Assembly (NCBI RefSeq): GCF_055900595.2
Contig: NZ_CM148325.1
Reading direction: 5' to 3' (one strand)
Length of the DNA: 64,000 nt
This document shows positions 6,276-54,780 of this stretch, in pieces. Position 1 is the stretch's first letter. The number at the start of each line of letters is the position of its first letter. Under the pieces are notes generated by a model. That model was not told where the DNA came from and did not search any database. It worked only from the letters and a program-made list of their open reading frames with translations. A program made the position numbers and the translations under genes.

Positions 6276-7271
6276 TCACTGCCATTTACGGTGATACGCG
6301 CCAAGAGTGGTTTGCGTGCCTTCGGACATCGACCCGAGCGTCTCCATCCACGCGCTTTGTGGTACGAAGTTTTGCGGATCGGCCTTACAACGGTCGATAG
6401 CCTGACGCCAGACTTTTGCCACCTGGCTGACATACGCCGGGCTACGCTGGCGGCCTTCAATTTTCACCGAAGCGATATTCGCCGCCATTAACTCCGGCAG
6501 TAGCTCAAGGGTATTGAGACTGGTTGGTTCTTCCAGCGCGTGATAGCGCTCGCCGTCCACCAGATAACGCCCTTTACACAGTGTCGGATAACCTGCGTTT
6601 TCGCCGTCCTGATAACGGTCGATCAGCACTTCGTTCAGGCGAGATTCCAGCCCCTGCGGCGTTTGCTGCCAGCGCACGAAACGGGCCGGAGAACATGCCC
6701 CCACGGTGTTGGGCGACTCACCCGTCAGATACGACGACAGATAGCAACGACCTTCCGACATAATGCACAGACTGCCGAAAGCGAACACTTCCAGCGGTAC
6801 AGGCGTGACCCGCGCCAGTTGTTTCACCTGATGAATCGACAACACGCGCGGCAGCACCACGCGGGCAACGTCAAAATGGCGATGATAAAAGTGAATCGCC
6901 TCTTCATTGGTTGCTGAAGCCTGCACTGACACATGACGTTCAATATGCGGGTATCGCTGGGCGGCGTACTCCAGCATGGCGAGGTCGGCGAGAATCAGCG
7001 CATCGGCACCCAACTGCGCCGCCATATCCACGGCGCGCTGCCAGCGGGCGTAACCGTCCGGATGCGCAAAAGTGTTAATCGCGATGTGAAGTTTGCGGCG
7101 ATGTTGATGGACAAAACTCACCGCTTCCTGCAATTTTTTCTCGGTAAAGTTAAGGCCGGCGAAGTGACGGGCATTGGTATCATCTTTTAGCCCGATATAA
7201 ACAGCATCTGCGCCGTTTTCGATGGCCGCCTTAAGCGCCGGGAGATTTCCGGCAGGGCAGAGCAGCTCCAT
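6276..7271 (-). CDS. ubiU: U32-family protein UbiU (O2-independent ubiquinone biosynthesis; 331 aa)
   Basis: Translation recognised as YhbU/UbiU; start placed at MELLCPAGNL (7271) rather than the ORF-track ATG at 7298. Confidence 0.85.
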   Translation of the reverse strand: MELLCPAGNLPALKAAIENGADAVYIGLKDDTNARHFAGLNFTEKKLQEAVSFVHQHRRKLHIAINTFAHPDGYARWQRAVDMAAQLGADALILADLAMLEYAAQRYPHIERHVSVQASATNEEAIHFYHRHFDVARVVLPRVLSIHQVKQLARVTPVPLEVFAFGSLCIMSEGRCYLSSYLTGESPNTVGACSPARFVRWQQTPQGLESRLNEVLIDRYQDGENAGYPTLCKGRYLVDGERYHALEEPTSLNTLELLPELMAANIASVKIEGRQRSPAYVSQVAKVWRQAIDRCKADPQNFVPQSAWMETLGSMSEGTQTTLGAYHRKWQ

Positions 7272-7479
7272 AATTTTTCCTGAAGGGTGCGCTATCAAAA
7301 CGCAAAAATGTTAACGAACTGGGATTTTAGTTAACCTTGCAGCGACAATTTTTGATTTAAGGCAGTTAAAGTTGTATTGGTGGTAGCAGCAATTTCATAT
7401 GGAATTGTTGATTTATACCGCTATGTTATTTTTCTGATATGGCAAAATAGGATGATTGTTGAAACAGGGAGTAAAACTC

Positions 7480-8004
7480 GTGTTGGATAAACTGCGTTCC
7501 CGTATTGTGCATTTGGGGCCATCTCTGTTGAGTGTACCGGTAAAACTGACGCCATTTGCGCTAAAACGCCAGGTTCTTGAGCAGGTCTTAAGCTGGCAAT
7601 TCCGCCAGGCGCTGGATGATGGCGAGCTGGAGTTTCTTGAAGGGCGCCGGTTAAGTATTCATGTGCGTGATATTGACCTGCAATGGTTTACCTCGGTGGT
7701 GAATGGCAAACTGGTCGTTAGCCAGAACGCGCAAGCTGATGTGAGTTTTAGTGCCGACGCCAGCGATCTGCTGATGATTGCGGCGCGTAAACAAGATCCG
7801 GACACGCTCTTCTTCCAGCGTCGGCTGGTGATTGAAGGCGATACGGAGCTGGGGCTGTATGTGAAAAACCTGATGGACGCCATTGAACTGGAGCAAATGC
7901 CGAAAGCCTTACGCATGATGCTGCTGCAACTGGCGGATTTTGTTGAGGCGGGAATGAAAACCGCGCCTGAAACCAAACAGACATCGGTAGGTGAACCATG
8001 CTAA
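7480..8004 (+). CDS. ubiT: SCP2-domain protein UbiT (174 aa)
   Basis: Translation recognised as YhbT/UbiT; GTG start at 7480 preceded by GGGAG; divergent from ubiUV. Confidence 0.8.
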   Translation: MLDKLRSRIVHLGPSLLSVPVKLTPFALKRQVLEQVLSWQFRQALDDGELEFLEGRRLSIHVRDIDLQWFTSVVNGKLVVSQNAQADVSFSADASDLLMIAARKQDPDTLFFQRRLVIEGDTELGLYVKNLMDAIELEQMPKALRMMLLQLADFVEAGMKTAPETKQTSVGEPC

Positions 8005-8501
8005 TTCGAGTAGAAATTCCCATTGATGCGCCGGGTATTGATGCCCTGCTGCGTCGTTCATTCGAAAGTGATGCGGAAGCGAAGCTGGTTCACGATCTGC
8101 GTGAAGATGGCTTTCTGACGCTGGGGCTGGTGGCGACAGATGACGAAGGTCAGGTCATTGGCTATGTGGCATTCAGTCCGGTTGATGTGCAGGGCGAAGA
8201 CCTGCAATGGGTCGGCATGGCACCGCTGGCGGTAGATGAAAAATACCGTGGACAGGGGCTGGCACGCCAACTGGTCTATGAAGGACTCGATTCGCTTAAT
8301 GAGTTCGGCTATGCCGCAGTGGTGACGCTGGGCGATCCGGCGCTGTACAGTCGTTTCGGCTTTGAGCTGGCGGCGCATCACGATCTGCGTTGCCGCTGGC
8401 CGGGCACTGAAAGCGCCTTCCAGGTACATCGTTTAGCGGATGACGCGCTGAACGGCGTAACCGGTCTGGTTGAGTATCACGAGCACTTCAATCGCTTTTA
8501 A
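7998..8501 (+). CDS. yhbS: GNAT-family N-acetyltransferase (167 aa)
   Basis: Translation recognised as YhbS; start overlaps ubiT stop by 7 nt; 3' end overlaps yhbQ 3' end (convergent). Confidence 0.85.
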
Positions 8502-8790
8502 TCTTTGGGGTTTGCAGGCTGCTTATCAGCTCTGCAAACCCTGAGCCTTCCGCTACCAGACGTTCTTTTTGCCGTTTGGTCAGTTGTTTAACGCGATATT
8601 CCGCCCGTAGTGCCAGCGAACGGTCGCCCACTGGCGCGGAAAATGCCAGCGTCAGTTCACCTTTCCCACGCAGTGCTTTTGCGCCTTTGCCGCTTTGATG
8701 TTGCTGATAGCGGCGTTCGACATCCGTGGTGATCCCGGTATAAAGCTTATTGTCGGCGGTACGGATCAAGTAAAGAAACCAGGGTGTCAT
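8488..8790 (-). CDS. yhbQ: GIY-YIG domain protein (100 aa)
   Basis: GIY-YIG signature [23 protein letters not shown] in translation; start placed at MTPWFLY (8790); ORF track also allows 8802. Confidence 0.8.
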
Positions 8791-8840
8791 CGTCTGCGTC
8801 ACATGTTAAGGTCAGGCCCACAGTATAAAAGAGAACAGCT

Positions 8841-9263
8841 ATGGAAACACTCACCGCCATCAGCCGTTGGCTGGCAAAACAACATGTTGTCACTTGGTGT
8901 GTGCAGCAGGAAGGGGAATTGTGGTGCGCCAATGCCTTTTATCTTTTTGATGCACAGAAAGTTGCCTTCTACATTTTGACGGAGGAAAAAACGCGTCACG
9001 CGCAGATGAGTGGGCCGCAGGCGGCAGTTGCTGGAACGGTAAACGGTCAGCCGAAAACGGTAGCGTTAATTCGCGGCGTGCAGTTTAAAGGTGAGATCCG
9101 CAGACTGGAAGGTGAGGAAAGCGACTTTGCGCGCAAGGCGTATAATCGTCGCTTTCCGGTTGCCAGAATGCTGTCGGCGCCGGTGTGGGAAATCCGGCTT
9201 GATGAAATCAAATTCACTGACAACACGCTGGGCTTTGGTAAAAAAATGATTTGGCTACGTAGC

Positions 9264-9284
<21 letters not shown>
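8841..9284 (+). CDS. yhbP: Uncharacterised protein YhbP, pyridoxamine-5'-phosphate-oxidase-like fold (147 aa)
   Basis: Translation recognised as YhbP. Confidence 0.85.
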
Positions 9285-9820
<536 letters not shown>

Positions 9821-9821
9821 T

Positions 9822-9872
<51 letters not shown>

Positions 9873-9899
9873 GGGAGCGCAAGGCAGACAATTCTGTAA

Positions 9900-10545
<646 letters not shown>

Positions 10546-10617
10546 TTATTCCCAAGAATTGATAGTGAGCGTAATATTCACGCGCTTAATTATCATAATT
10601 TATTCCTGGGGAATGCT

Positions 10618-11658
10618 ATGACTGGTCAGTCTTCATCTCAGGCGGCAACGCCCATTCAGTGGTGGAAACCCGCGCTTTTCTTTCTCGTTGTCATTGCCGG
10701 ACTTTGGTATGTGAAATGGCAACCTTACTACGGTAAAGCCTTTACTGCCGCCGAAACTCACAGTATCGGTAAATCTATCCTTGCGCAGGCGGATGCTAAT
10801 CCGTGGCAAGCTGCGTGGGACTACGCGATGGTCTATTTCCTCGCGGTATGGAAAGCGGCGGTACTGGGGGTGATCCTCGGGTCGTTGATTCAGGTGCTGA
10901 TCCCTCGTGACTGGCTGCTACGCACGCTGGGGCAATCGCGCTTTCGCGGCACGCTGCTGGGAACGCTGTTTTCGCTGCCGGGCATGATGTGTACTTGCTG
11001 TGCGGCACCGGTCGCGGCGGGGATGCGTCGCCAACAGGTGTCGATGGGCGGGGCGCTGGCATTCTGGATGGGCAATCCGTTGTTAAACCCGGCGACGCTG
11101 GTGTTTATGGGTTTTGTCCTCGGCTGGGGCTTTGCGGCGATTCGTCTGGTGGCGGGACTGGTGATGGTGTTGCTGATTGCGACCCTGGTGCAAAAATGGG
11201 TGCGTGAAACACCGCAAACACAGGCACCGGTCGAAATTGACATGCCGGAAGTGCAGGGCGGATTCTTTAGCCGCTGGGGTAGGGCGCTATGGACGCTTTT
11301 CTGGAGTACGATCCCGGTATATATCCTTGCCGTACTGGCGTTGGGTGCCGCTCGCGTCTGGTTATTCCCCCATGCCGATGGTGCTGTCGATAACAGCCTG
11401 ATGTGGGTGATTGCGATGGCGGTAGCGGGATGCTTGTTTGTCATTCCCACGGCAGCAGAAATTCCGATTGTACAAACGATGATGCTGGCAGGTATGGGAA
11501 CCGCTCCGGCGCTGGCATTGTTGATGACGCTTCCTGCTGTAAGTTTGCCGTCGCTGATAATGTTGCGTAAAGCGTTCCCGGCGAAAGCCTTATGGCTGAC
11601 GGGTGCGATGGTGGCGGTGTCTGGTGTGATTGTCGGCGGGCTGGCGCTGTTGTTCTGA
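10618..11658 (+). CDS. yraQ: Inner-membrane permease YraQ (346 aa)
   Basis: Hydrophobic multi-pass protein; translation recognised as YraQ. Confidence 0.9.
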   Translation: MTGQSSSQAATPIQWWKPALFFLVVIAGLWYVKWQPYYGKAFTAAETHSIGKSILAQADANPWQAAWDYAMVYFLAVWKAAVLGVILGSLIQVLIPRDWLLRTLGQSRFRGTLLGTLFSLPGMMCTCCAAPVAAGMRRQQVSMGGALAFWMGNPLLNPATLVFMGFVLGWGFAAIRLVAGLVMVLLIATLVQKWVRETPQTQAPVEIDMPEVQGGFFSRWGRALWTLFWSTIPVYILAVLALGAARVWLFPHADGAVDNSLMWVIAMAVAGCLFVIPTAAEIPIVQTMMLAGMGTAPALALLMTLPAVSLPSLIMLRKAFPAKALWLTGAMVAVSGVIVGGLALLF

Positions 11659-11675
11659 TTTGAGGGAAAACATGT

Positions 11676-11858
11676 CGGATGCGGCGTAAACGCCTTATCC
11701 GACCTACGGTTTGCATCGTTGTAGGCCTGATAAGACGCGGCAAGCGTCGCATCAGGCAACGGCAGTCGGATGCGGCGCAGGCGCCTTATCCGACCTACGG
11801 TTTGCATCGTTGCAGGCCTGATAAGACGCGGCAAGCGTCGCATCAGGCATTACAAGGC
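11676..11858. repeat. Tandem pair of about 91-bp REP/BIME units
   Basis: gatgcggcg…cttatccgacctacggtttgcatcgttg[t/c]aggcctgataagacgcggcaagcgtcgcatcaggca occurs twice head-to-tail; ORF-track artefacts on both strands repeat the same peptides (MRRKRLIRPTVCIV…, MRRLPRLIRP…). Confidence 0.8.
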
Positions 11859-11862
11859 GTTG

Positions 11863-12438
11863 TTATTTAATGAACGTAAACGCCGTGGTTACCCGCTTCA
11901 CGCCGCTTACCCGGCTGGCAATATCTGCCGCCGCTTTCGCTTCACGTTCAGTCACCAGCCCCATCAGGAACACTTCACCGTTTTCGGTGGTCACTTTCAC
12001 GTTGGACGATTTCACCAGGTCGCTGGTTAAGAGCTGCGAACGCACTTTGGTGGTGATCCACGTATCGTTAGACGCTTCGCCCAGACCAATCGGCTGGCCC
12101 TGACGAATCTCGTTATACACTTCGTTGGCACCGTCTACGCCCATAGCAATCTGTTTGGCGCGAGCCGAAAGTTCAGCGTTTGGTGACTGCCCAACCAGCA
12201 GCACTTTGCCCTGATAGGCCGTTACATTAATGCGAGCTTCTTTCTTGATTTGTTCGTCTTTCGACAATGCGCTGTTCACGCGCACTTCCAGGGTTCCATC
12301 ATCCACCTGGGTGCCGACACTGCGTGGGTCAGTTGCGGCTTTTGTACCCACAGCCGCGGTGCCCACTACGGCGGCAGCAACGCAACCTTGCAACAGCAGT
12401 GCGGAAATAAGGACTGCGATTGGCGATAATGCCTTCAT
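11863..12438 (-). CDS. dolP: Outer-membrane lipoprotein DolP (YraP), dual BON domain (191 aa)
   Basis: Signal peptide with lipobox LLQGC; translation recognised as YraP. Confidence 0.9.
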   Translation of the reverse strand: MKALSPIAVLISALLLQGCVAAAVVGTAAVGTKAATDPRSVGTQVDDGTLEVRVNSALSKDEQIKKEARINVTAYQGKVLLVGQSPNAELSARAKQIAMGVDGANEVYNEIRQGQPIGLGEASNDTWITTKVRSQLLTSDLVKSSNVKVTTENGEVFLMGLVTEREAKAAADIASRVSGVKRVTTAFTFIK

Positions 12439-12447
12439 GTATTCTCC

Positions 12448-13038
12448 TTAAACATCCTGGTGAGGGAAAAGCGTGTTATCGATCAGATCGCACAAGCAAT
12501 TTACCGTCAGCATATGCATTTCCTGAATGCGAGCACTACGATGCGAAGGAATGCGGATCTCCACATCCTGTGGCCCTAACAACCCTGCAAGTTCACCGCC
12601 GTCATAGCCAGTCAATGCCACAATGGTCATATCACGCGTAACAGCAGCTTCTACTGCTTTTACGATATCGCGGCTGTTGCCACGGGTGGAAATGGCTAAC
12701 AACACATCTCCCGCATGCCCCAGCGCCCGCACCTGTTTTGCATACACTTCATCATGTAAGCGATCGTTGGCAATCGCCGTTAAGACAACATTATCAGTAT
12801 TTAGTGCAATGGCAGGTAAGCTGGGCCGCTCCGTTTCGAAACGGTTGATCATGCTGGCAGCAAAATGCTGTGCATTGGCAGCGGAAGTTCCATTACCACA
12901 ACAGAGGATTTTGTTGCCATTGAGCAGAGACTGAACCAGCGTCATGGCTGCACGGGAGATGGCATCCGGAAGCGCCTCTGCTGCCGCAATTTGAGTTTGA
13001 ATGCTTTCAGTGAAGCAAGCTTTAATTCGTTCTTGCAC
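12448..13038 (-). CDS. diaA: DnaA initiator-associating protein DiaA (SIS domain; 196 aa)
   Basis: Translation recognised as DiaA/YraO. Confidence 0.9.
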
Positions 13039-13057
13039 GCTAATCCTTAAACCTTAA

Positions 13058-13453
13058 TTATGAGTGGTCATTAAAGGCATCCTTAATCCACTCAACTTCA
13101 TTCCCGGTGAAGGCTACCACATCGAACCGGCAATCCACAGTATCAAAACTCCCATTATGACGCGCGAGCCACAAGCGGGCAGTCTGTAATAATTTGTGTT
13201 GTTTGCTGCGGGTCACACTGGCTGCCGCACCACCGTAAAGGGCTGAGCGGCGGTAACGCACCTCGACAAAAACGGTGGTCCTGCCTTCACGCATTATCAG
13301 ATCGATCTCGCCGCCACGCTCGTTCACGTTAGCGGCGACAAACCGCAGTCCTTTGCTCTCCAGCCAGCGACGCGCTTGTGCTTCCCACGCATCGCCGGTC
13401 TGTTTAGTGGTTAACTGGCGGGGACTACCTGACCTTGTTGGTACTGTAGCCAT
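13058..13453 (-). CDS. yraN: UPF0102 family protein YraN (131 aa)
   Basis: Translation recognised as YraN; annotated start overlaps the lpoA 3' end by 43 nt. Confidence 0.8.
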
Positions 13454-15447
13454 GATAACTTCCTGTTAATTACGCAATCCGGGTTAGCCGTCAGACTTCC
13501 GGTATTACCGTTGATTTCGAAACCCTGAACCTGGCGCATCTGTGAGAAATGATTTGCCAACGACCAGGCATCAACGCCCATCGCATACATGCGAGCCAGC
13601 GAATAATCGTTATTCACCGCACTGAGCGCCTGCTGCATTAATGGCAGATTACCGCCTGCCAGCATCGGGATTTCGCTATATTGCAAACCTTCCATTTCCA
13701 GACGGAAATCCGGACCCGCGGTGCCTTGTGCGCTGCGGGAACTGGCGTACAGCGTTGCACCACTCTGGCTACCGTTACGCATGGCGATCATCGGTTTGAT
13801 AAAAGCGATTTCACCCGGCGTTGCCACAATGTACACCGCATCGACACGACCGCCATTATTGGTGAACTGGTCATCGGTTGGCGTGGTTTGCAGCATTGGA
13901 TTGTTGGTCGTTATGCCTGAATCGGTTGTCGCTCTGGGAGTAATCGGGCTACCGGTTAAAGCGATACCAGAACCACCGTTAACTCCCGCGCGTAATTCGC
14001 TGGTGGAACCAAATTTTTGTTGCAAAACGGTGCCGCCGCCCAGCTTCTGCCACTCTTGCGCAAACGCATTGGCTACGCGATCGCCCAGCGAACTGCGAGG
14101 GATCAGCACCAGTGGCGCTTGTTTACCCTGGTCACGAATATGACGCGCTGCATCGCGCGCTTCGTCTTCCGGTGAAAGCGCGAAGTAACAAATATTGACG
14201 CGGTTTTCGATATTTTCCGGCTGGTTCAGTGCCAGCACGTTCAGCGGGGTGTTGCTTTTCAGTAACTCTTCAACGTTATTTTTCAGCAACGGACCGACCA
14301 CAATACTCGCGCCATCCTGCTGAACCTGGCTTAATATCTGGCTAAGCGGTTGTGATGAGGTATCATAAATTTTCAGCTCTGCGGATGGATTCGCGGGGGC
14401 GCTTACCGCCGCAGTGCTTGCCGCCGGGGCGCTTACAGGCACTGGTTGAGCCGCGGTTTCTTCGCCTGTCAGATCGCTAACCGAGGCTTGTGCCGGGCTG
14501 GCAACGCCGTCAACAGTTTGCTGCAGGGGTTGTTCTGCAACGTCTGCGATTGGTGCGGCAGTTGCCTGTGCCGCCACTGGCTGAGTGCCGATATTTTTCG
14601 CCGCTTCAAAGCCTTGCTGAATAGTGCGACCAAATACCGCTGCCTGGCCATTCAGTGGCAACAGCAGGGCGATTTTGTTGGTTGACGCTGGTTTAAATGC
14701 TTTTACGTTTACCAACTGCGTAGGCAGCATTTTCGCGCCCGGGTTGTTCGGATAACGTTTCTGCCAGTCGGCGATCCCAGCTTTCATCATGCCGGGATCG
14801 TTACGGTTATCAAACCAGACGCGCTGCAGATCAAGCCAGCCTTGCAGAATATTTTCGTCGGCGTTGATCACCAGCGTATTCGCCTGGTCCTGAGTCATGG
14901 AGGAGAGTGCCTGCCATGTAGCATCAATATTCTGTTGCTTTTCTTTCGCGCCGAGCAGGGGTTCCTGAGCAATTAAGGCGCGCAGTAAATCAATGGAAGG
15001 ACGCCCCTGACTGGCATCGATTTTTGCCTGCCAGTAACGCGCCTGCTGGTTTTGATCTAAATCGGCAGGTGTGATTTTCGCCAGCAGGGTTTGTGCGCCA
15101 GCAAAATCTTTCTGCGCCAGCTTAATTTCTACTGCCAGAAGAGTTTTCTCGCGACGCTGGTAATCGTTCAGTTCCTGCGGCAGTTGGTTAAACAGCTCCA
15201 CCGCCTGCCCGGTTTTACCTTCTTTCACCAGTGCACGAATGGCGAGTAATTGCCAGTTGATCCTGGTATCATCAGCGCTTTGCTGCATCTGCTGAAGATA
15301 AAAGGCAGAATCAGCCTGCGCCGTGCCCTGCATATAGGCAGTGGACTGATCGGGAGTATGGGTGCCACAACCGGCGAAAATCAGGGCTGCCAGAACAACA
15401 GGCAGACAACGCGCGGCTTTCAAACGAGAAAATGTTGAGGGTACCAT
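13411..15447 (-). CDS. lpoA: Penicillin-binding protein activator LpoA (678 aa)
   Basis: Lipoprotein signal (LIFAGC) plus TPR-like N-domain; start placed at MVPSTFSRL (15447) rather than the ORF-track ATG at 15477. Confidence 0.9.
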
Positions 15448-15511
15448 AATGTATCCAGTGATATTTTTTTTACGCAATGCTCAATATTAAATCGGCAATA
15501 CGGACGACACA

Positions 15512-16375
15512 ATGAAACAACACCAATCGGCGGATAATTCTCAGGGCCAGCTTTACATTGTACCGACGCCAATCGGCAATCTGGCAGATATCACCCAGCG
15601 TGCGTTGGAGGTTTTACAGGCCGTTGATCTGATTGCCGCCGAGGATACGCGTCATACCGGTTTACTGCTGCAACATTTTGGAATTAACGCCAGGTTGTTC
15701 GCCTTGCACGACCATAACGAACAACAGAAAGCCGAAACGTTACTGGCGAAGCTGCAGGAAGGGCAAAACATTGCGCTGGTGTCCGATGCCGGAACGCCAC
15801 TGATTAACGATCCCGGCTATCATCTGGTGCGTACCTGCCGAGAAGCGGGGATTCGCGTGGTGCCACTACCGGGGCCGTGTGCTGCTATCACTGCATTAAG
15901 TGCTGCGGGTTTACCATCCGATCGTTTTTGTTATGAAGGTTTCCTGCCTGCCAAATCAAAAGGCCGTCGTGATGCGCTAAAAGCCATTGAAGCGGAGCCG
16001 CGTACGCTGATTTTTTATGAATCCACCCACCGTCTGTTAGATAGCCTGGAAGATATCGTTGCTGTGCTGGGTGAGTCCCGTTACGTGGTGCTGGCGCGTG
16101 AGCTCACCAAAACCTGGGAAACCATTCACGGCGCGCCCGTTGGCGAGCTGCTGGCGTGGGTCAAAGAAGATGAAAACCGTCGCAAAGGTGAAATGGTGCT
16201 GATTGTTGAAGGCCATAAAGCACAGGAAGAAGACTTACCTGCCGATGCCCTGCGCACGCTGGCGTTGTTACAGGCTGAGCTTCCGCTGAAGAAAGCGGCG
16301 GCGCTGGCAGCAGAGATTCACGGCGTGAAAAAAAACGCGCTGTATAAGTATGCGCTGGAACAGCAGGGGGAGTGA
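15512..16375 (+). CDS. rsmI: 16S rRNA (cytidine1402-2'-O)-methyltransferase RsmI
   Basis: Translation recognised as YraL/RsmI; divergent from lpoA. Confidence 0.9.
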
Positions 16376-54396: not shown

Positions 54397-54780
54397 AAAC
54401 GAGGAGCGTTTCTCCTCGTTTGAGACTGATGGCAAACGCAAAACTGCCTGATGCGCTATGCTTATCAGGCCTACGAGGTTTCTGCAATGTATTGAATTTG
54501 CATGTTTTTGTAGGCCGGATAAGGCGTTCACGCCGCATCCGGCATGAACAACGTGCACTTTGTCAACAATCTGAAACGAGGAGCGTTTCTCCTCGTTTGA
54601 GACTGATGGCAAACGCAAAACTGCCTGATGCGCTATGCTTATCAGGCCTACGAGGTTTCTGCAACGTATTGAATTTGCATGTTTTTGTAGGCCGGACAAG
54701 GCGTTCACGCCGCATCCGGCATGAACAACGCGCACTTTGTCAACAATCTGAAACGAGGAGTGTTCCCCCTCGTTTTTTAT
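54397..54780. repeat. Tandem array (about 2.2 copies) of a 177-bp composite unit: perfect hairpin plus REP pair
   Basis: Units begin at 54397, 54574 and 54751 (partial); each carries aaacgaggagcgtttctcctcgttt followed by REP units (gcctgatgcgctatgcttatcaggcctac…gtaggccggataaggcgttcacgccgcatccggca); the two full copies differ at 3 positions. Confidence 0.8.

Follow-up and report, generated by a model that had tools for sequence, protein, structure and literature searches.

A two-unit BIME-2 array of alternating Y and Z2 REPs in the convergent yraQ-dolP gap of Escherichia coli

Repeated DNA nearly fills the gap between the convergent genes yraQ and dolP in the window analyzed here, a stretch of 64,000 nucleotides from contig NZ_CM148325.1 (RefSeq assembly GCF_055900595.2), and raises the question of what exactly is repeated, how the repeat came about and what it might do for the two genes that end on either side of it. 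The original prediction, made from the sequence alone, was a tandem duplication of a 91-bp REP unit at positions 11676 to 11858. The gene context was taken from the list of open reading frames and from the annotation of the RefSeq E. coli chromosome of strain Z0117EC0005, which shows 100% identity to window 11300-12200, the 901 bases that were compared. The permease gene yraQ occupies positions 10618-11658 on the plus strand, with its TGA at 11656-11658, and dolP (yraP) occupies positions 11863-12438 on the minus strand, with its stop codon at 11865-11863. The two genes converge on the gap, as had been predicted; it measures 204 bp from stop to stop, and the array lies wholly outside the genes.

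Tandem Repeats Finder reported a period-91 array at 11674-11849 with 1.9 copies, 95% matches, no indels and a score of 324, and a repeat search resolved two 85-nt direct repeats, 11674-11758 and 11765-11849, that are identical at 81 of 85 positions (95%). The chance of at least 81 matches in 85 in random sequence is about 5e-41, which confirmed that two near-identical, homologous copies lie head to tail. The homologous portion amounts to 85 + 6 + 85 = 176 nt rather than 2 x 91; the array had been placed at the right location, with a left edge 2 nt too late and a right edge that took in nine unrepeated nucleotides (11850-11858). A base-by-base comparison of the two units located the four mismatches at 11687, 11689, 11690 and 11722, the first three in the loop of the first palindrome (TAAA versus CAGG) and the fourth in a tetranucleotide (GTAG versus GCAG). 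The open reading frames across the array repeat the same peptides on both strands, as was also foreseen, namely MRRKRLIRPTVCIV... and MRRRRLIRPTVCIV... on the plus strand and MRRLPRLIRP(T/A)TMQTVGRIRRLRRIR twice on the minus strand; these frames are spurious, and annotation should ignore them. The two-unit array itself is genuine and no assembly artefact, since an identical junction between the units is found in 14 independent complete genomes and a variant junction in 306 more.

The repeated unit is not a single REP but a BIME-2 unit, in which 13 nt of linker separate a Y-type REP from an inverted Z2-type REP. The predicted "91-bp REP unit" was thus correct as to family and period, and needs revision in that the unit consists of a Y and an inverted Z2 REP with their linkers, homologous over 85 nt. 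The array as a whole contains four REPs of alternating orientation, in the order Y, Z2, Y, Z2. The Y-type REP of unit 1 (11674-11707, minus strand), delimited by the inverted repeat, the fold and the naRNA4 alignment, is an imperfect palindrome (11674-11687/11690-11703) that takes the iREP form ending in CTAC on the plus strand and the GTAG-first form on the minus strand. Between this CTAC and the next GTAG lies the 13-nt intra-unit linker GGTTTGCATCGTT (11708-11720), and the Z2-type REP (11721-11758, plus strand) consists of GTAG and a palindrome (11725-11738/11744-11757) with a 2-nt AA/GC mismatch in its stem. The 6-nt inter-unit linker ACGGCA (11759-11764) leads to unit 2, which comprises a Y-type REP (11765-11798, minus strand) with the loop CAGG instead of TAAA, a 13-nt linker identical to that of unit 1 (11799-11811), and a Z2-type REP (11812-11849, plus strand) that begins with GCAG instead of GTAG. 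In both units the Y-type REP reads GTCGGATGCGGCG-loop-CGCCTTATCCGAC plus CTAC, and the Z2-type REP reads GTAG (GCAG in unit 2) plus GCCTGATAAGACGC-loop-GCGTCGCATCAGGC plus A. The inverted-repeat search gave 14-nt arms with 86% complementarity for all four palindromes, and the DNA folds place a 2-nt internal mismatch in each of the four stems. CTAC is present at 11704-11707 and 11795-11798 and GTAG at 11721-11724, so that GCAG at 11812-11815 is the sole deviation; by the rules established in vitro (PMC3333891), it would make the last Z2 REP a predicted poor binding site for TnpA(REP). The first REP stem starts 15 nt after the yraQ stop codon, the last one 14 nt after the dolP stop codon as read on the minus strand, and one-unit alleles have the same outer distances.

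The RNA of both strands folds far better than shuffled sequences (z = -6.3 and -6.1), and the minus-strand RNA forms four separate hairpins. A single long REPIN hairpin per unit was considered and rejected, as the Y and Z2 REPs fold separately. No promoter-like site was detected by the scan in or adjoining the array, and the terminator scan returned no intrinsic terminator within 11659-11862 on either strand. A short TGTTTT alone follows the last hairpin on the minus strand. Reading the array as an intrinsic (Rho-independent) terminator was also rejected; with no U-tract directly after any hairpin and an empty terminator scan, intrinsic termination is not expected here.

The assignment to a family follows from several properties of the element. 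It has the features of REPs, being made of imperfect palindromes with a stem mismatch that carry GTAG/CTAC, lying outside genes and occurring in dispersed copies; the conserved GTAG on the 5' side of the palindrome foot is a REP hallmark (PMC3333891). Related REPs were located by blastn-short elsewhere in the window, at about 35.6, 50.2, 53.3 and 54.5 kb, and megablast with the locus as the query gave a median of nine match places per E. coli genome. BIME-2 elements are defined by z2 and y REPs in inverse orientation, with short linkers and in tandem copies, and their unit number at one locus varies between strains, the units of one locus being well conserved (PMC3333891). The present element combines y and z2 REPs in inverted arrangement, short linkers of 13 and 6 nt, tandem organization and a strain-variable number of units. 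The Y and Z2 types themselves were assigned with cmscan, which matched the Rfam family naRNA4 (RF02564) at 11724-11795 on the minus strand with 70.7 bits against a gathering score of 59.5. This match spans the Y REP of unit 2, the 6-nt linker and the Z2 REP of unit 1 and therefore needs two units; the Y hairpin of the REP325-derived model corresponds to 11765-11795 and its Z2 hairpin to 11725-11757 in the alignment, where GCCG is common to the 6-nt linker and the REP325 linker. Because naRNA4 represents a single stretch of Y, linker and Z2 from REP325, in which 12 palindromes of the Y and Z2 types alternate (PMC4550694; Harris et al. 2026 preprint), the palindromes could be typed accordingly. 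Membership in BIME-1 (z1 and y REPs, a long L linker, often an IHF site, single copy) was rejected, given the Z2-like REP with a 5-nt loop, the 13-nt linker and the lack of an IHF consensus, WATCAANNNNTTR having no match on either strand of 11659-11862.

The window contains further repeats. A second REP-containing tandem array, with a period of 177, 2.1 copies and 97% identity, is located at 54397-54775; its unit consists of a short Z1-like REP (GCCTGATGCGCTATGCTTATCAGGCCTAC), a long linker, a Y REP and a small terminator-like hairpin and resembles BIME-1, and the Rfam family ES036 (RF02751) matches at 54467-54507 on the minus strand, just over its gathering score. A coding repeat of 33 bp at 2600-2694 (2.9 copies, 72% matches) encodes an arginine/glycine-rich motif; the RNA helicase DeaD probably has its C-terminal tail here.

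The unit number at the locus differs between strains, as had been expected of REP arrays. One unit is the state of about 86% of 5,426 complete E. coli genomes, K-12 among them; 320 (5.9%) carry two, as counted with a junction-centred 94-nt query at E <= 1e-20, the position between yraQ and dolP being confirmed directly in a few of these strains; and about 8% have unrelated sequence. By identity to the junction query, the 320 genomes fall into nine at 99% or more, five at 95-99% and 306 at about 92%. Three or more units were found in no genome among the 5,426, the junction query always matching one place per genome. With a 36-nt query, the exact ACGGCA junction was detected in 14 of the 5,426 genomes, once in each, and the two-unit allele of the 306 others has diverged, its linker reading ACAGCA and its unit 2 bearing three private substitutions. 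These full counts agreed with a sample of 59 chromosomes taken at even spacing, which contained 50 one-unit alleles, four two-unit alleles, four cases of an unrelated 121-bp sequence and one interrupted locus. At least 80% of the locus query is covered in 4,971 of the 5,426 genomes, a measure that cannot count units because BLAST aligns a lone unit to both units of the query and gives 99%. A donor of the linker at another E. coli BIME-2 locus was considered and found unsupported: the junction occurs once per genome and in two-unit strains only, and a search needing a 28-base exact word revealed neither ACGGCA nor ACAGCA linkers at another BIME-2 locus in the 5,426 genomes.

Other alleles of the locus were also encountered. 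The approximately 8% of complete E. coli genomes with no REP in the gap (for example KGu016 and E69) have in its place an unrelated 121-bp sequence that contains the palindrome CCCCTCTCCCCTTTGGGGAGAGGGTTAGGGTGAGGGG and looks like a boxC-type repeat; the last few yraQ codons of these alleles are different as well. The REP element is thus dispensable at this locus. The insertion sequence IS1397 prefers REP loops, and its presence in E. coli FHI_NMBU_03, where this IS3-family element interrupts the Z2 REP of a one-unit allele within its loop, fits that preference. As for the genome studied here, a 9.6-kb part of the window (6756-16369) shows about 95-96% identity to K-12, about 93% to E69, which represents a species of its own in GTDB, and 88-93.5% to E. 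albertii, and the locus is matched at 99% or more in only nine of the 5,426 complete genomes. From these sequence comparisons, the window derives from a rare, divergent E. coli lineage, perhaps a cryptic clade.

A pattern scan for outgroups, limited to a single genome for each species, gave hits in E. albertii and Citrobacter; E. fergusonii, E. marmotae and E. ruysiae were not among its results. In the sister species E. albertii (NBRC 107761), the orthologous locus holds 3.9-4 units with the same 91-bp period, and the linker ACGGCA is present at all three inter-unit junctions; its left flank is near-identical (AAAAACAT|G) and its right flank similar (GGCA|TGACAAGG) to that of the window. The 13-nt intra-unit linker is specific to locus and species, reading GGTTGGCGCCGTT in E. 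albertii versus the sequence given above in the window, and within each species all units have such linker variants in common, which implies either concerted evolution or else independent expansions that reused one linker. Units 2 and 4 of E. albertii differ at five positions, units 1 and 3 at three and units 3 and 4 at five, most other pairs at six to nine; the likeness within the pairs 2/4 and 1/3 suggests that the four-unit state may have arisen by duplication of a two-unit block. Unit 2 of E. albertii has GCAG, as does unit 2 of the window. Several Citrobacter species and "Escherichia sp. ESNIH1" carry one pair of REPs in the gap, both of the local type, and in Lelliottia, Kosakonia and Enterobacter EA-1 a bidirectional intrinsic terminator (AAAAAACCCGGCAATCGCCGGGTTTTTT) stands there instead of REPs. 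Some hairpin element is hence present in the gap of all relatives examined, which suggests that a structure at the transcript ends may be needed between yraQ and dolP.

Published work on related elements indicates what such an array could do. The REP325 array both stabilises the upstream mRNA and terminates transcription in a partly Rho-dependent manner; about 30% of E. coli convergent gene gaps contain REPs, the expression of both genes being higher in such pairs, and the effects of REPs depend on context (bioRxiv 10.64898/2026.03.23.713779). That preprint makes no mention of yraQ, dolP or yraP. In BIME-2 elements, which gyrase binds and cleaves in vivo, its cleavage sites are enriched, for the most part in y REPs (PMC6379681), and translation is down-regulated where a REP lies within fewer than 16 nt of a stop codon, according to the summary of Liang et al. 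2015 given in PMC12306157. By analogy with these elements, the array is likely to serve as an mRNA stabiliser and a partial terminator at both 3' ends, and also as a gyrase site.

The term "tandem duplication" in the original prediction describes the structure well, and the question is whether it also describes the history. A recent de novo duplication of a one-unit, K-12-like allele in the lineage of this strain would account for the 95% identity of adjacent copies and the identical 13-nt non-REP linkers, for the predominance of one unit in E. coli, by far the commonest state, and for the C at 11700/11791 and 11714/11805 that both units have and K-12 lacks. Such an event, however, as a simple duplication of a segment, would leave AAACAT and/or TTACAA, the flanks of the one-unit allele, at the junction, whereas the junction found is ACGGCA, which is absent from both flanks and also joins the units of E. 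albertii. In addition, the distance between the two units (4/85) is twice that between unit 1 and the K-12 unit (2/85), and a second, diverged two-unit allele with ACAGCA exists in 306 genomes, so that we consider a fresh duplication quite improbable. The K-12 unit is identical at 85 of 85 positions to unit 1 of that common two-unit allele, whose unit 2 differs at three sites, and K-12 is 99.2% identical to the two-unit strain fEC.1 across the compared locus, a 91-bp indel aside; one clean 91-bp indel, with substitutions of its own in the extra part, is better explained by a deletion than by a fresh duplication. Since ACGGCA is absent from the one-unit allele yet identical at the E. albertii junctions, the multi-unit array is probably old and the one-unit state of K-12 probably a 91-bp contraction, a polarity that rests mainly on one outgroup genome and the 6-nt linker. 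"Duplication" would therefore refer probably to the structure and not to the history.

With respect to function, two further readings were weighed against a role at the 3' ends of both genes. The array might be a purely selfish, REPIN-like non-autonomous element whose copy number is set by a REP-associated transposase and which serves no host function there. What TnpA(REP) requires (a 5' GTAG, a stem mismatch and a pair of REP and iREP) is present in three of the four REPs, recombination catalyzed by TnpA(REP) can add REPs in vitro (PMC3333891), and the locus is both dispensable in about 8% of strains and a target of IS1397. We regard this reading as possible but doubtful, in view of the hairpin elements that occupy the gap in all relatives examined, from the terminator of Lelliottia and Kosakonia to the REP pair of Citrobacter, and of the published local effects of REPs on flanking genes (bioRxiv 10.64898/2026.03.23.713779); moreover, a change by whole periods between 85-nt direct repeats requires no transposase. 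Alternatively, the second unit could have given rise to an RNA gene whose naRNA4-like product would bind HU and associate with the nucleoid. At the gathering score, naRNA4 has no match at the one-unit locus of K-12, the match recurs in the common two-unit allele and in the E. albertii array, and naRNA4 function is reported to require two hairpins, Y and Z2 (PMC4550694). Yet the Rfam family in effect models one Y-linker-Z2 stretch of BIME-2, and a match to it signifies membership in the repeat family; the linker has 6 nt here and 13 in the model, no promoter-like site was detected in or beside the array, and REP325/naRNA4 caused no measurable nucleoid compaction, REP-REP contacts not being seen (Harris et al. 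2026 preprint). A role of naRNA4 in condensing the nucleoid is itself under dispute. The match is mainly a family label for the BIME-2 repeat and not evidence for an RNA gene, and we give the creation of such a gene a very low probability.

The reading that we favor, with a probability of roughly 85%, is that of an old two-unit BIME-2 array whose unit number drifts, the one-unit allele having contracted from it, and which works as a bidirectional 3'-end module. The unit number would drift through the loss or gain of whole 91-bp periods, for which the candidate mechanism is slippage during replication or unequal recombination, in each case involving the two 85-nt direct repeats, with TnpA(REP), the REP-associated transposase, as a possible helper. 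The common one-unit allele of E. coli would represent such a contraction, and the window would retain a rare two-unit allele. Transcripts arriving from either the yraQ or the dolP side are predicted to fold into stable REP hairpins, which could block 3'-to-5' exonucleases and partly stop RNA polymerase and would in this way form a 3'-end module for both genes. The outer REPs, at 15 and 14 nt from the stop codons, would fall within the class reported to dampen translation termination, and the BIME-2 DNA at the locus is a candidate for a preferred gyrase site. Two units in place of one should alter these effects in degree only. A bolder proposal is that the array, its exact 6-nt junction included, was already multi-unit in the common ancestor of E. 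coli and E. albertii and has been kept here, its units becoming homogeneous within either species, and that the unit number (0, 1, 2 or 4) acts as a heritable dial for the mRNA stability of the permease gene yraQ and the envelope-stress gene dolP and for the insulation of each from the convergent transcription of the other; we hold this to be unlikely.

The import of the element hardly goes beyond annotation, where the label should be that of a BIME-2 array with four REPs. The locus does offer a natural allelic series at a single convergent gene pair, made up of REP-free alleles, one-unit alleles, two diverged kinds of two-unit allele, the four-unit array of E. albertii and a copy disrupted by IS1397. 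With this series one could test the recent claim that REPs serve as bidirectional terminator/stabiliser modules whose effect depends on dose. The ACGGCA junction, being rare (14 of 5,426 genomes), can also be used as a lineage marker.

Among known systems, one close counterpart is the yraQ-dolP element of K-12 MG1655, which has the same position and otherwise collinear flanks and a unit identical to unit 1 of the window at 83 of 85 positions; it differs in having neither the 6-nt inter-unit linker nor a second unit, and its gap measures 113 bp versus 204 bp. REPINs, the hairpin-forming REP doublets of Bertels and Rainey that RAYT transposases mobilise, resemble the present array in having an inverted pair of REPs as the unit, the GTAG and the stem bulge needed by TnpA(REP); the paired REPs of this array, by contrast, differ in type (Y and Z2) and fold as two hairpins, and no RAYT gene is present in the window. 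The palindrome types are identical to those of REP325 with naRNA1-6 (yjdM-yjdN; RF02564; PMC4550694), and a two-hairpin stretch of the array scores above the Rfam threshold. REP325 comprises six units (12 palindromes) of 77 bp plus spacers between tandem genes of one operon, whereas the array described here has two units with a period of 91 bp, a Y-Z2 linker of 6 instead of 13 nt, and a location between convergent genes. With the BIME-2 arrays of the Gilson/Bachellier nomenclature (Ton-Hoang et al. 2012, PMC3333891), it has in common the alternating Y and Z2 REPs, the short linkers, the tandem pairs, the extragenic 3' position, the strain-variable unit number and a greater likeness of units within a locus than between loci. 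There is no essential difference from these arrays, the GCAG in its second Z2 REP standing against the GTAG conserved elsewhere; the element belongs to a long-known class, and its polymorphism is of a kind already described.
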